IMG/VR virus record: IMGVR_UViG_2537561716_000030
DNA: 17,093 bases
Direction: 5' to 3' (one strand)
From: a virus
Taxonomy: Duplodnaviria; Heunggongvirae; Uroviricota; Caudoviricetes
Below are positions 1 through 15,000 of this stretch, piece by piece. Made by a program: the position numbers. Every line of letters starts with the position of its first letter. Position 1 is the stretch's first letter.

Positions 1-3000
1 TTATTCAGAATCGATATCTTTTAAATCATCCTGAATCGCTTGCGCGTTCGGATTTTCCTGCGGTTTGAGTTCGCCGCCATTAGCGATGAAATCATGACGC
101 TGGAAGTACGCTTCGCGCACCATAATATAAGGATCGGACGACTGACGCAGCAGACCGTCGGAATCCAGCAGCTGTGCGCGGGTTTCGATACCTTCAAGCG
201 TCCATTTACCCACAGACATCGGCCAGGTCAGCCAGGAAAGAACCGGGTAAAGACCATCCGCCATATCACCACCGTCATCACGCAGCGTGAAGCTACCGTA
301 GAACGGTAATTGAACGTACGGGCCATAACCCACGCCATAATGACCAAGCGTACTACCGAAGCGGTGAGGTTCAGTCCGTTGCAGTTTCGGGTTCGCCATC
401 CCTGCAACATCAATAAAGCCGCCCATCCCCAAAATGGTGTTCAGGAAAAAGCGGGTAAAGTGGACCATCCCCTGATAAGGGTCGCCCTGCAAGAAGTAGT
501 TAACCATCACCGCAGGTTCTTCAAGGTTGCCGGTAAAATTGCTCAAACCGTTACGCGCCGGTTGCGGAACATAATCACGCCAGGCGACAGCGACCGGTCG
601 AACAATATACGGGTCTAATACATTGAAGTTAAAGTTGTACATGGTGCGGTTGAACCCTTCTAACGGGTCAGAACGCCCTTGCTGATCTGTACCGGAACTC
701 GCACACCCCACCAGAAGCGTAGTTCCCAGAGCAAGCGCCGACAGGCGAAGCTTCATAAATGTCTCCCTGTTTTTTTATGGCTTATGCAGTTTGCCATCCA
801 TGACGGAACGATACCGTATCCGCCTGTTTAGGTGTGGGCGATTGTAACAGCACGTCAACTGATGTCCAGACGCCCTGATTTGCTGATTTGATCATAGCCT
901 GGTAATCGCCGCCCTGTAGGCTACTTGATTCTATAGAAACAGAAAAAGGCAAACGCGGCCTTTTCTACATTTTCAAAGTAACTCCCGCCAGTTGCGAGCA
1001 AAAAAGCCGCTACGCTTTAGCTATACGTGCTAATTCAAGAGAAGAGACCATGGACAACGACAAAATTGATCAACACAGCGACGAAATTGAAGTTGAGAGC
1101 GAAGAAAAAGAGCGTGGCAAAAAAATAGAAATAGATGAAGATCGACTCCCCTCCCGGGCGATGGCAATTCATGAGCATATCCGCCAGGATGGTGAAAAAG
1201 AGCTGGAACGCGACGCAATGGCACTACTGTGGTCAGCCATTGCGGCGGGTCTGTCGATGGGCGCTTCATTACTGGCAAAAGGGATATTTCATGTCGAACT
1301 GGAAGGTGTGCCGGGCAGCTTCTTGCTGGAGAATCTCGGTTATACCTTTGGTTTTATTATCGTCATTATGGCCCGCCAGCAATTATTTACCGAAAACACC
1401 GTGACTGCGGTACTACCCGTCATGCAAAAACCGACAATGAGCAACGTTGGCTTACTTATGCGGTTATGGGGCGTCGTGCTGCTGGGTAATATTCTCGGGA
1501 CAGGTATTGCGGCGTGGGCATTTGAATATATGCCAATCTTCAATGAAGAAACTCGCGATGCATTTGTCAAAATCGGCATGGATGTGATGAAGAACACCCC
1601 CAGCGAGATGTTTGCCAACGCGATCATTTCCGGCTGGCTGATCGCCACTATGGTATGGATGTTTCCTGCAGCGGGTGCGGCAAAGATTGTGGTGATTATA
1701 TTGATGACCTGGCTTATTGCCCTGGGTGACACCACTCACATCGTTGTCGGTTCTGTTGAAATCCTCTATCTGGTGTTTAACGGTACGCTGCACTGGAGCG
1801 ATTTCATCTGGCCCTTCGCACTACCTACTTTAGCGGGGAACATCTGCGGCGGCACCTTTATCTTCGCGTTAATGAGTCATGCACAGATCCGTAACGACAT
1901 GAGCAACAAGCGCAAAGCAGAAGCACGCCAAAAAGCAGAACGTGCGGAAAACATTAAGAAAAATGATAAAAACCCGGCATAAATGGCGAGGGTTTAAGCA
2001 ATCGAGCGGCAGCGTACTTACCCCGCAGTCCATTAGCGGGTATACTCATGCCGCATTGTCCTCTTAGTTAAATGGATATAATGAATATAAGTATTAAGTC
2101 ATTGATTTAAATACAGAAAGTGGCGAAATAATCGTCATATCAGTACCCATTTATGTACACACCCCGTTAAGCATGCCCCGCACTTCCGTACGGGGCATGT
2201 TCTTTACTCCACTCCCACTTTTTTGTTGTACTCGCGGTTAAACCGATCCACGGCAATTTTCATATCCCGCTCAACCGATTTCACCATCGCCGACTGTTGC
2301 GCCAGACTGAGAGTACTGTCGGCGTAAATGGCATCACGCTGTTTACGCAAATCCTTCAGTCTCTTCCGGGTATCCTGCATAAGCCCGTTCATCGACAATT
2401 TTCCGTTGTTCTCGTCAATGAACGCCGTTCTTTCTGCACCGGTCAGACTCTTCAGCTCTGCGTGATACTGCGCAACCTCTGTCATCCGGTCGTACATCTT
2501 CTGCTGGTCAGCATACGGCATCACCTCACCTGAAATTTTCCCCAGGAAGGGCACCTGCTGCTCCGGTATATCAATACCGTTCAGCGATTTCACCGCCGCA
2601 TCCGTGGTTTTGGAAATGAAGCGCCCTGTCCCTCCGGAGATATAGTCAATCCAGTATTTCAGTGATTCCGGCGTGACATCCACCGCACCGGAACGGTACT
2701 GGCTGCCACCAGAGAACGCATTCAGCCAGGATGCAAACGCCTTGTACGCTTCTGGCGTTGAACGTCTTCCCAGCTGGCTGTCAGGTTTTGGTGTACCAAA
2801 CGGCATGTTCTCCTGGTAAATCTGCGCCCCCATGAAGTTTTCGTTCATGGCAAGATTCGCAAACGGACGCAGAATTGTCGGTGCTGCATTTTTCAGCAAT
2901 GCCCCGGACAGTGTTTCCGACGTTTCACTGCCCACAGGACTGAATGCCCCAAGCACACCACCAACAACATTACCGGCAGCACGTGAAGCGGTCAGGTCGC

Positions 3001-12000: not shown

Positions 12001-15000
12001 TGGCCCCCATTGCAGCGCTGGAGCCTGCCACAGATGCACCCACAGCAGCCCCCGTACCAATGCCCGTGGCGATATTCTGTTTTTTCTGAGCTTTCTGCTG
12101 CGCCGCCATCATCTTGTTTGACGCCTCAATTTCTTCACGTCGTCTGTCTGCCTCGCTTATTCCCTGTAATGCCTCACGCCGCGACTGATTTGCAATATCC
12201 AGTAAACCGTATCCCATATTTCCTCCTTACGCTGCCACCAGTTGTCCGCCAACACTCAGTTTCTGTCTTGCCGGTGCAGAAGCCCCCGTCAGAATATTCA
12301 TCTGGCGATCCTGTTCGGCTTCACGGATACCATTTTTCGCGCCAGCAATTGCCAGGGCATTACGTAACCCCAGCGTATTACTGTCGGGATTATCCGGGCG
12401 GCTTACCCCGTATCTCGCCATCTGGTTATCCTGCGCCATCTGCGCTGTACGGAGACTGGAAGTGGCAAGGCCGCCCACCCGGGCAAGCTGTGCATTCATC
12501 AGGCTGTTGTTCTCGCCAAGGTCAGCCAGCCTTGCTACACGGGGTAAATATCTGGTGCGCCAGTCGTCGTATTGCTGGCGGGTCAGCGCTGCGGATGTCT
12601 GCCAGTCCCCCTGAGGGCGGGCTGCTCCGGTATAACCGTATCTCGCAAGTGTTTCGTATTTACCGTACTCCATAATCACAGTCTCCAGTTCTGAGCCTGA
12701 TACTGAATGGCATTAGCGCCGGTGCCAGGTGTTTTAGCACCGCCACTTCCTCCGCTACCACCAGCCTTATGCATCGCATATGCACCTACCGCACCCAAAC
12801 CAGCGCCAACAAGAGAGGCTCGCCCCTGCTGTTTCGTAAACGCAGCCTGTGCGTCCGATTTAGCTTTTGCCAGACTGCTGTCTGCCAGCGAGTTAAAACT
12901 CTGTAACGCATCCGCCTTCTGACCTGAACCGAGAGCTGCAACATCCTGTAGCCCGGCAACATACTTATCTGCCTGCGATACCTGCCCCCGTGTGGTTGTG
13001 TCAATCTGCCCGGTTACCTGATCACTCTGGTTCGCATTCATTACCGCGTTAAAGCGACCACTGGACGGGTCAACACCGGACTGAGCAAGATTACCCGCCA
13101 GCTCCTTCCGTGCTTCGCCAAACTGTTTCTGATACCCCAGATTTGTGGTGCCAGCAATATTGTCGTACTGCTGCTCACTGTTCAGGTCATCGACCTTTTC
13201 CATGAAGTTATCTTCAGCCGGGCGGAGGATATTTTTGTAATCCTGCCACCCTTTCCAGGCCACTTCTTCCTGTGCTATTTGCGCTGCTGTTGGTTTTACT
13301 TTGGTATCACCACCACCTTTACTTCCACCCATAATGGCCCCCTGGATAATAAAAAAACCCTGCCGGAGCAGGGTCAGAATGTGAATTGCAATGTTGGTTT
13401 AAACACGATGATGAAAACTGTGGCAGTCAGACCGCTATCCTGAACACCATGAAGCCATCCTCATCATCCGGCATTCGCTCAAAGCCCAGACGTTTTCCCA
13501 GCCGGATAAATCCCCGCCTTGCCGTATGAAATTCAGCCCAACGTCCGCCAGCCAGACGGGTTAATGTCTTCACCTCCGGCAGATAACGCTCAACACTGTT
13601 ACTCCCCGTACACACGCCCAGCAACACCAGAACATAAGGGATACCATCAGCACTGAGCACAGAACGCAGCACCAGAAAGCCATCAGGTGCCTCAAAACAA
13701 AACGCCTGCTTTTTAAGGCAGGCGTCTTTAACTTCATTCATAAATTCAGGGTTGCGGGAATTTCTCACCACACGCTGCATATACCGGAGAATTTTATCGT
13801 TCATTCTCTCACCTGAAACGGGTGCCATATCGGCTGAACCTCAGCAACCAGTTGACGGGGACTTTCGTCCCCGCCGCGGTTTTCCTACTGCTTACACTGT
13901 AAGAACGCCGCAAACTCCGCTCCCCACAAATTCAGCCGGAACTCACACAACGAGCCGTGTAACATCCAGATGGTGAAGATAACCGTCATACAAATTGTGA
14001 CGGTGATAAGCGATTTTTGCGACATAGCGCTTGCCTCCTGAGTGGAGAGGCGCTAACCTTCTACTTGTCAAGGTACGAAGTGTTAGGGCCTCGGGTTAAC
14101 GTTAAGTTGACTCGGGGCCTTTCCACATCAGGCCTTCAGGTTCACCCTCCAGCCATCAGCCGAAAGGCACCCACGCATAATTTACGGTTTTTGCCCTGTA
14201 CGGGCAATAAAAAACCCGCCATCACAGCGGGTAGTAAACGGTTACCGGATACAGGTTAGAATTTCAGGCCAATGCCAGCAGTAATTCCACTCGTGCGCCA
14301 GTCGCCAGAGCCGGAACCTTCGTAAGCCACATCCAGTGTAACACTCTCATTCAGGTTAAACTGTGCACCTGCAGCCCACGCAAGGGAGTTTTTTTTCGTG
14401 CTGTTGCTTTCAGAAAATCCGCCACTACTGTTAATATTGTCCTTAATTTTCAGGTCAGCGCTAACTTTAGCAACGCCCATCCCTGCCATCGCATATAAGC
14501 TCATGTACTGATTAACCCGCCATGAAGGCCCCGCTAACAGACTCCAGTAATTCGCCCTGATATCCGTTCTGGCAGAAGCTGCCGGATTCTTAATCTTCCT
14601 GGTATGATCGGCTGACTGCACATCAATAAATGTCTGTGAGTTAGTGAGAGAACGCGTCCATGTAAAAGAGGTGATAACGCCAAAATCATCCGTTATCTCG
14701 TAGCGATACCTGATATTAATGCCCTGTGGATTTTTATCCTTGCCTTCATATCCACTGACCCGACCATCTGTATATTCGCCCAATGAAGAAAAGTAGTTTC
14801 TGTTGACGAAATGACTGAAAGTCTCCCTGTTATGAGCAGTCGCATCCTTTACAAAATCCTTCAGTCCCGGAAACTGAAAGTGCGCATACCCCAGAGAAAT
14901 TGTATGGTTTCCTTCTGCTGCATGTGCAGATAAATTTACACAGGCAATCCCGGAGATTGCACACACAACCAGTGTTGCTATACTCTTCATTTAAGATATC

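Follow-up and report, generated by a model that had tools for sequence, protein, structure and literature searches.

Phages that carry Shiga toxin (Stx) genes spread them among E. coli, and for this reason the entry of their DNA into the cell is medically relevant. A tail of ~22 nm is too short for the Gram-negative envelope, which T7, P22 and N4-like phages bridge with capsid-stored proteins that are expelled first. What would play that part in a short-tailed Stx phage? The question is raised by a stretch of 17,093 nucleotides (nt) from IMG/VR virus record IMGVR_UViG_2537561716_000030 (the window, taken at its full length), in which five minus-strand genes span ~11 kb, nearly one fifth of the phage genome, and end in a gene for a giant protein of 2,791 amino acids (aa). 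A first-pass annotation had placed this block among accessory cargo rather than structural genes, had found it not assignable to any characterized family from sequence alone and had put it forward as the best candidate for an undescribed system. We think it quite likely that the block is the ejection-protein module (ejectosome) of a 933W/Sp5-type short-tailed Stx2a prophage, with a polyvalent effector fused to the virion-internal ejectosome. The module is not new: its sequence is deposited in GenBank, single deletions of its genes have been made in phage Sp5, and others have found its products in virions and suggested that the giant is an ejection protein. What is contributed here is a cysteine-free signature, the synteny of the block across podophages and a widespread C-terminal module of the giant.

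Genes, orthologues and virion content of the block

Between positions 2057 and 15950 the window is 100% identical to the Stx2a phage PA28 (Sepvirinae, Traversvirus), and this identity, together with the mapped PA28 attR annotation, identifies the window as the right-hand terminus of a short-tailed Shiga-toxin prophage, integrated into a tRNA-Arg gene that we take to be argW. The genes of the block are as follows.

12676-13332, minus strand: 218-aa gene; open reading frame (ORF) with Shine-Dalgarno sequence; PHROG 611; orthologue of Sp5 ORF76 and phi24B gp51 (vb_24B_44)
12227-12673, minus strand: 148-aa gene (from ATG); ORF with Shine-Dalgarno sequence; PHROG 596; orthologue of Sp5 ORF77 and phi24B gp50
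11924-12217, minus strand: 97-aa gene; PHROG 594; orthologue of Sp5 ORF78 (83 aa) and phi24B gp49
10648-11913, minus strand: 421-aa gene; PHROG 601; orthologue of Sp5 ORF79 and phi24B gp48
2204-10579, minus strand: giant 2,791-aa gene (from ATG); end-to-end match to PHROG 616; orthologue of Sp5 ORF80 and phi24B gp47

The mechanical ORF list starts the 148-aa gene two codons earlier, at a GTG, and a TTG start listed at 10606 would make the giant 2,800 aa. GGAG-type Shine-Dalgarno sequences lie 5-9 nt upstream of all five starts, with AAGGAGG for the 97-aa gene and AAGGAG for the 421-aa gene. The intergenic gaps are 2, 9 and 10 nt, followed by one of 68 nt between the 421-aa gene and the giant. 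The first-pass description of five co-oriented minus-strand genes (218, 148, 97, 421 and 2,791 aa) with near-perfect Shine-Dalgarno sequences is thus borne out, as are three of its 2-11 nt gaps, but not the one before the giant.

Sizes and order match Sp5 ORF76-80 (218/148/83/421/2793 aa in the supplementary table) and phi24B vb_24B_44-48 (gp51-gp47) at protein or DNA identities of 95-99%, so that the same series of 218, 148, 83-97, 421 and 2,791-2,793 aa recurs in the three phages; the 97-aa protein here differs from its counterparts in a Gly-zipper region that is 14 residues longer. DNA identity over the block is 95-98% to phi24B and VT2-Sakai (Sp5). In the annotations of PA28, phi24B and VT2-Sakai, the block closes the late structural cluster on its distal side, past the fibre, nozzle and lom genes. 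All 186 matching phage records, which come from Stx or related Escherichia/Shigella phages, have it in full, and the 421-aa gene is found in 424 of 5,426 complete E. coli genomes. The block is therefore anything but unassignable: identical to that of PA28 and orthologous to Sp5 ORF76-80 and phi24B gp51-gp47, it is homologous over its full length to a structural module already known in a named phage genus, and the proposal of an undescribed system falls with this. Since order, sizes and 95-98% of the DNA sequence are shared, the Sp5 phenotypes and the phi24B proteomics apply directly to the block. All genetics, proteomics and cryo-electron microscopy (cryo-EM) discussed below come from these two sister phages, and the prophage here is known from its sequence.

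Are these genes needed to make an infectious particle? When the genes of Sp5 were deleted singly, nine late genes proved essential, ORF79 (421 aa) and ORF80 (2,793 aa) among them (Mondal et al. 2016, PMC5155283). Particles of both mutants have normal-looking heads with DNase-protected DNA and give zero plaques and zero lysogens (PMC5155283), such that the 421-aa and giant proteins are essential for infectivity and not for DNA packaging. The ΔORF76 mutant still infects, yielding no lysogens under standard conditions and a few from concentrated lysates (PMC5155283). A conserved distal late cluster in which two genes are essential and a third strongly affects lysogenization is not what the first-pass idea of accessory cargo would lead one to expect.

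Where, then, are the proteins found? The cryo-EM of phi24B, in which ~40% of the particles are emptied, resolves the portal, two adaptor rings, nozzle, six fibres and needle (preprint 10.64898/2026.04.10.717836). In the same preprint the giant gp47 is the second most abundant virion protein by peptide-spectrum matches (PSM; 10,962), is described as carrying LPD5, LPD1, LPD38 and MuF-C, is unseen in any map and is proposed to be an encapsidated ejection protein. In its abundance sheet, gp47, gp48, gp50 and gp51 are marked 'ND' (no structure-based copy number). The preprint supplement gives the following copies per 12 portal subunits, rough numbers from peptide counts.

gp47 (giant; 2,811 aa as a stop-to-stop reading frame): ~23 copies
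gp48 (421 aa): ~37 copies; 1,634 PSM
gp51 (218 aa): ~27 copies
gp50 (148 aa): ~44-48 copies
gp49 (orthologue of the 97-aa protein): weakly detected, 13 PSM in total

By these supplementary tables, purified virions contain all five block products, none of which is part of the capsid or tail as resolved. In the preprint gp49 was treated as a contaminant because it was labelled 'E. coli bacteriocin'; some RefSeq records annotate the 97-aa orthologue 'bacteriocin'. One supplement sheet labels gp48 'Transcription factor?' despite its 1,634 PSM. Old database annotations seem to have hidden the virion association of the whole block.

Cysteine suppression and conserved gene order

Not one of the 3,675 residues of the five proteins is a cysteine (0 of 2,791 in the giant), whereas 21 other PA28 late proteins contain 70 in 6,276 residues (1.1%), a frequency at which a count of zero has P ~1e-18. 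External tail and portal proteins of the same phage do contain cysteine (8 in the nozzle homologue, 6 in the portal), and the adjoining 133-aa protein has 3, such that the cysteine-free signature marks out exactly the five genes of the block. The feature extends to distant relatives: homologues in Vibrio, Burkholderia, Ralstonia and Aeromonas-type phages have no or one cysteine, with 3-6 in the morons inserted among them, and 121 of 150 representatives of the giant's C-terminal family are without cysteine. Cysteine is likewise suppressed in the three-gene ejection operon of 191 Schitoviridae, where this has been related to passage through the oxidizing periplasm (Lokareddy et al. 2024, PMC11445570).

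Gene order is conserved over a similar range. Genes p0003-p0009 of Vibrio phage 252E42.2 are collinear with the 133-aa gene, the four small genes and the giant, with one opposite-strand gene inserted. A scan of viral contigs gave 27 distant loci in which the 421-aa protein is 22-31% identical, the nearest phage record being Aeromonas phage phiARM81mr, and the order 133/218/148/97/421/giant is kept in 25 of the 25 that have enough upstream DNA. The giants at the distant loci share the N-terminal region of the giant here, and all three that were scanned carry LPD38, with pyrophosphatase as extra cargo. The 218-aa protein is homologous to Vibrio phage p0004 and to BcepIL02 gp66 and Gervaise gp25, both annotated virion structural proteins, which precede a mid-size protein and a giant of 4,500-4,667 aa carrying the same C-terminal module; in JC1 (Bcep22-like) the positional equivalents gp64, gp67, gp68 and gp69 are virion-associated by mass spectrometry. 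Order is therefore kept in Aeromonas and Vibrio podophages and partly in those of Burkholderia and Ralstonia. The E-values of the Vibrio/Burkholderia/Ralstonia and Aeromonas-type comparisons refer to small local databases, and the distant matches are convincing because they are collinear.

Several loci depart from the standard layout. Five Aeromonas-type loci (L058, L060, L061, L062 and L082) have an ORF of ~300 aa with 3-6 cysteines between the 421-aa homologue and the giant; the gap after the 421-aa homologue is ~570 nt in L058, L060, L061 and L082 and 18 nt in L062. At L075 the giant is broken into several ORFs by frameshifts or sequencing errors. The 133-aa gene (13427-13828, minus strand), just upstream of the block here, accompanies it in Vibrio and Aeromonas-type phages. 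Its product, with its three cysteines, is not among the phi24B virion detections, the one peptide at that locus lying in the antisense frame, and may assist in assembly or packaging instead of being ejected.

The giant, the four smaller proteins and the flanking DNA

What could a protein of 2,791 residues contribute to a virion? The giant resolves into the following regions, listed by window coordinates and, in brackets, by protein residues.

9356-10099, minus strand: conserved N-terminal region (161-408) with Gly/Ala-rich, moderately hydrophobic stretches; aligns with the N-terminal part of the Vibrio-phage giant
7880-9247, minus strand: acidic, Pro/Gln/Arg-rich low-complexity region (~445-900), from composition per 100-residue block
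6986-7435, minus strand: LPD5 (1049-1198); Pfam PF18799, E 5e-43
6266-7042, minus strand: zincin-like metallopeptidase region (1180-1438) with HEWFH at 1282, including LPD1 (1359-1438)
5594-6169, minus strand: second HExxH domain (1471-1662), from its motif, HEIIH at 1549
5069-5338, minus strand: MuF_C (1748-1837); Pfam PF18819, E 1.3e-17
2213-4924, minus strand: conserved C-terminal module of ~900 residues (1886-2789), with LPD38 at 2474-2679 (nt 2543-3160)

LPD5, LPD1 (E 7e-24), MuF_C and LPD38 all score above their Pfam cut-offs. The NCBIfam CLCA_X match over 1180-1435 (E 1.3e-43) is below its curated cut-off, and the second HExxH domain, with a weak match to Peptidase_M76 (E 0.21), is shared by the Vibrio-phage giant and, at positions that vary, by many representative proteins. 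LPD5 is predicted to be enzymatic, and MuF_C is a PBECR domain, a barnase/EndoU/colicin-E5/RelE-like predicted RNase or RNA-binding domain (Iyer et al. 2017, PMC5512222). For this reason the 'MuF-C metallopeptidase' degrading peptidoglycan of the phi24B preprint was rejected; the label looks mistaken because the HExxH motifs (1282 and 1549) are in other domains. Polyvalent proteins may have a zincin-like metallopeptidase able to cut them into their units; Pfam MPTase-PolyVal is not matched by the giant, though HExxH domains are present. The AAA+ ATPase of the Sp5 study, a COG1483 match in ORF80, was not reproduced in the giant by Pfam or NCBIfam. Relaxed Pfam searches on six segments from the remaining regions returned noise-level matches only, and a search of PDB sequences with the giant returned nothing.

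Residues ~445-900, which match no family and are poorly conserved among relatives, are probably a flexible linker, judging from their composition. Preceding them, the N-terminal region was found in the giants that follow the small-gene block at 26 of the 27 distant loci; it contains a hydrophobic segment (181-208), and a weak Gly-zipper match (406-433) lies just past it. Neither internal repeats nor relatedness of the small block proteins to the giant was found. In phi24B gel slices, gp47 peptides are mostly in the first-listed slices EA1805-1809, for which the file holds no slice-to-size mapping; if these are the top of the gel, as is probable, gp47 would be mainly uncut in virions.

The C-terminal module has a far wider distribution than the block. 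A search against 1.84 billion cluster representatives, each standing for a protein cluster at 50% identity, returned 8,558 clusters at E<=1e-3 and 4,775 at E<=1e-30. Among the 150 best matches the module ends at most 20 residues from the C-terminus in 143, and these proteins have a median length of 2,633 aa, the longest reaching 5,181 aa. The cargo ahead of it varies, comprising an Sbno-type helicase with pyrophosphatase in one case, an ADP-ribosyltransferase with PBECR5 and ResIII in another, and none in a 939-aa stand-alone form (P0200). The giant is thus built of constant N- and C-terminal regions with shuffled cargo between them. At 26-27% identity the module aligns with the 'DarB-like' giants of Bcep22/BcepIL02/JC1 and of GP4/Gervaise-type Ralstonia phages, the PHROG 'DarB-like' match being limited to residues 2349-2679 of the giant. 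An AlphaFold2 model of the module is confident (pLDDT 79.5, pTM 0.75) and mainly helical with one beta domain, and no solved structural relative of the module was found. Both AlphaFold2 models of this study, that of the module and that of the 421-aa protein, rest on shallow alignments of 22-23 sequences (23 for the module).

This architecture invites comparison with the polyvalent proteins, in which many unrelated domains are likewise joined in one giant encoded beside virion genes and for which LPD5, LPD1, MuF_C (PBECR) and LPD38 are diagnostic (Iyer et al. 2017); that survey does not mention Stx phages (PMC5512222). With at least two effector-type domains and a virion-gene neighbourhood, the giant belongs to this class, and transfer to the recipient would be expected of it. 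The 'DarB-like' giants of Bcep22/BcepIL02/JC1 and GP4/Gervaise-type phages are similarly virion-associated and share the C-terminal ~900 residues, but the giant here is without their SNF2-type helicase, methyltransferase, ADP-ribosyltransferase and pyrophosphatase. P1 DarB itself is a large protein that is taken up into the head and reaches the cell together with the DNA, and the giant stands beside it through the name given to its relatives, the likeness extending no further than the C-terminal module that the so-called DarB-like giants carry; neither a DarB-type helicase nor a DNA-methyltransferase domain was detected in the giant by Pfam or NCBIfam.

The smaller proteins are of simpler make, and composition, helix prediction and Pfam agree with the first-pass picture of low-complexity, coiled or glycine-zipper small proteins beside a multidomain giant. 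The 218-aa protein is Ala/Gly/Gln-rich and 98-99% identical to its phi24B and Sp5 counterparts, and the 148-aa protein has collinear homologues in Vibrio and Aeromonas-type phages. The C-terminus of the 97-aa protein consists of two Gly/Ala-zipper hydrophobic stretches (residues 56-74 and 79-97). A 48-nt stretch in this part of the gene (11985-12032) is absent from the alignment with Sp5 and phi24B, where the protein has 83 aa, and looks like a length polymorphism of the zipper. Among the PADLOC defence models, the sole match was a weak one of the Gly-zipper region to LeoBC (E 7e-5), the other four proteins having none. The AlphaFold2 model of the 421-aa protein is mostly alpha-helical, with a ~100-residue helix (14-115), helical domains and a small sheet, at moderate confidence (pLDDT 73, pTM 0.42). 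No PDB relative of this protein was found by a 22-sequence profile search or by fold comparison. The matches listed in its homologue search were all E. coli copies at least 81% identical, and a query with the Vibrio homologue added 11 sequences. Profile-profile comparison (hhalign) with BcepIL02 gp69/Gervaise gp27 found in common only an extreme N-terminal GxGxFAQGLxxG, at 24% probability, a motif that might be a packaging or docking signal.

One further feature lies within the block.

10598-10613, minus strand: GC hairpin followed by T7 (a run of seven T), inside the 68-nt gap and immediately before the Shine-Dalgarno sequence of the giant gene

It resembles an intrinsic terminator, a suggestion that comes from its position alone, and is one of three strong sites with a hairpin and T-run on the minus strand, the others being at 13356-13375, before the 218-aa gene, and 14214-14232, after lom. 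Terminator-like sites are not enriched overall in the region (13 found, 11.9 expected in shuffled sequence). The three intergenic sites might adjust expression levels, or Q-modified polymerase might read through them.

The flanks of the block place it on the bacterial chromosome. At its left end the window consists of E. coli DNA that encodes a VacJ/MlaA-type lipoprotein (1-756, minus strand) and a 310-aa membrane protein (1050-1982, plus strand). The two genes are presumably mlaA and yfdC of the K-12 map, and the tRNA-Arg gene beside the latter would then be argW. The junction itself is the following.

2057-2081, plus strand: attR core, the prophage/chromosome junction, mapped from the PA28 attR annotation and equal to the first ~24 nt of the tRNA-Arg gene

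The chromosomal match ends at ~2081-2084, inside an annotated tRNA-Arg, in 5,426 of 5,426 complete E. coli genomes, 209 of which have the same junction. Scans of the window for tRNA genes and Rfam families gave no match and no intact tRNA is present; the window keeps only the first ~24 nt of the tRNA-Arg gene, and the intact copy must therefore be at the other prophage end, beyond the window. The first-pass placement of the block against the attachment junction and distal to fibre and lom is accurate, the junction being 122 nt from the stop codon of the giant gene and the lom and fibre genes lying upstream of the block. In that direction, the segment 13829-16000 contains a 427-nt non-coding gap and G+C down to ~0.41 around lom and a 205-aa 'membrane associated' gene, features that would fit the entry of morons between the tail genes and the block. 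The ~800 nt at 15951-16754, in the fibre-gene region, have no PA28 match, and similarity is back at 95% over 16755-17093; for this reason the prophage is a mosaic with a different fibre C-terminal part, and not PA28 itself.

Ejection and its alternatives

Can the block be recognized as an ejectosome? Small membrane, mid-size helical and very large proteins are encoded side by side, as in T7 (gp14/gp15/gp16) and the Schitoviridae (gp52/51/50; gp73/72/71 in DEV). As with those operons, the products are in virions and largely invisible in reconstructions, and as in the Schitoviridae they are cysteine-suppressed. It is this shared layout, invisibility and cysteine avoidance and, in part, the phenotype of DNA-filled, non-infectious mutants that lead to the ejectosome reading. 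Through the orthologues, the block has what is expected of such a system: presence in the virion outside the shell and tail model, DNA-filled non-infectious mutants (in which fibre labelling is also lost) and cysteine suppression. It differs from the T7 and Schitoviridae systems in having five proteins rather than three and in lacking detectable sequence or fold homology to them; moreover, the DEV giant is a 3,398-aa virion RNA polymerase, whereas the giant here has peptidase-like and RNase-like domains. In a passage of PMC8402733, P22 gp7, gp20 and gp16 are described as internal proteins at ~12-30 copies per virion that are injected with the DNA and form a trans-periplasmic conduit. The copy numbers of the phi24B orthologues are similar to theirs, without homology. 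The first-pass guess that the proteins are packaged and delivered fits the polyvalent Pfam domains of the giant and the presence of all five orthologues in phi24B virions, delivery being the part that is predicted.

Ejection, conduit formation, the role of each protein and all enzymatic activities are what we infer, and the model would run as follows. All five proteins would be made late and stored in the T=9 capsid, at tens of copies each, outside the shell and the external tail. Once the central needle is released, they would exit through the portal-nozzle channel ahead of or with the DNA. The 97-aa and 218-aa proteins (perhaps with the 148-aa protein), the helical 421-aa protein and the conserved ends of the giant would extend the 22-nm tail into a conduit that leads from the outer membrane through the periplasm and across the inner membrane. 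The giant's variable middle, with LPD5, the two HExxH zincin-like domains and the PBECR/MuF_C RNase-like domain, would travel as injected cargo and might act early in infection on the cell wall, on the giant itself (self-processing), or on host RNA or defences.

Several points weigh against this model. The documented stage is the virion association of the orthologues, from which exit from the capsid and entry into the cell are predicted, and the phi24B study that documents it is an unreviewed preprint. No sequence or fold similarity to the ejection proteins of T7, P22 or N4/DEV was detected, the model of the 421-aa protein is of modest quality, and the segments of the giant are moderately hydrophobic (Kyte-Doolittle <=1.4) with no clear transmembrane helices. 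P22 ejection-protein mutants still assemble tails, whereas the Sp5 mutants are without fibre labelling. In Sp5, ΔORF77 and ΔORF78 are not among the mutants defective on K-12 (PMC5155283), and particles of ΔORF79 and ΔORF80 bound no anti-tail-fibre antibody (data not shown in PMC5155283). The lost fibre labelling is the main discordant fact. Internal proteins could stabilize the portal-tail junction; the loss could also mean that a role in tail assembly is partly right.

Such a role is how the authors of the Sp5 study read their mutants: because the anti-fibre antibody did not bind, they class ORF79 and ORF80 as tail-formation genes (PMC5155283), such that the 421-aa protein and the giant would build or stabilize the short tail, possibly in an energy-requiring step, instead of being ejected. 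Packaged heads that leave the antibody unbound are what this predicts, and the COG1483 AAA+ match that the authors noted in ORF80 would suit an energy-requiring step. However, the phi24B cryo-EM explains the whole tail without these proteins, which are abundant in the same preparation, no ATPase domain was found in the giant by Pfam or NCBIfam, and the nozzle homologue (8 Cys) and portal (6 Cys) contain cysteine where the block contains none. Fibre loss could moreover be secondary, for example to a portal or tail that is unstable without the internal proteins, and tail building instead of ejection appears decidedly improbable. A different emphasis would make the giant chiefly an injected anti-defence or host-takeover effector in the manner of P1 DarB or T4 Alt, with the small proteins as packaging helpers and the conduit minor or absent. 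The polyvalent-protein domains of the giant, the helicase, ADP-ribosyltransferase, pyrophosphatase and RNase-like cargo of its relatives, and the name 'DarB-like antirestriction' that PHROGs and RefSeq give to related giants all agree with such a function, for which Iyer et al. 2017 predict action early after entry. Yet the giant and the 421-aa protein are essential on laboratory K-12, where an effector serving counter-defence alone could be dispensable, no helicase or methyltransferase domain is present in this giant, and its invariant parts are the non-enzymatic ends and not the cargo. We regard an effector function with little or no conduit as unlikely, while noting that it is largely compatible with the ejectosome and differs from it in emphasis.

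It might also be argued that the block is accessory prophage cargo, that is, an undescribed toxin-delivery, defence or competition system unrelated to virion making, as its position at the very end of the prophage, beside attR and downstream of the lom moron, and the 'unknown function' of all five families in PHROGs would suggest. Against this stand the two genes essential for infectivity, the presence of the proteins in virions, the same gene order inside the structural clusters of phages other than lambdoid prophages, and the PADLOC search, which gave nothing beyond the weak Gly-zipper match. The position is itself particular to this prophage: the giant here abuts attR in argW, whereas in Sp5 more genes come after it, and in Sp5/933W-type genomes the block is internal with early-region genes beyond it, which indicates that adjacency to the attachment site is an accident of where the integration module lies. 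The accessory explanation has hardly any probability left.

We tentatively hypothesize that the ejectosome encoded by the block is a fourth, structurally unrelated podophage type beside those of T7, P22 and N4, a possibility that we hold to be real without giving it the upper hand. Four small cysteine-free proteins would operate alongside a giant carrier with structural ends. The ends of the giant would dock and translocate, the cargo would be interchangeable, and the C-terminal module would be a general delivery device in more than 8,500 families of phage giants; the ~250-residue N-terminal region that travels with the small genes and the confidently predicted C-terminal fold are the parts on which such a device would be built. 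If the block is an ejectosome, its five proteins would be targets for understanding host range and superinfection barriers in Stx phages, and the giant would exemplify, in nature, a protein vehicle for delivering enzymes into bacterial cells. Absence of cysteine would then also provide a cheap means of delimiting the ejected proteins in unannotated podophage genomes.

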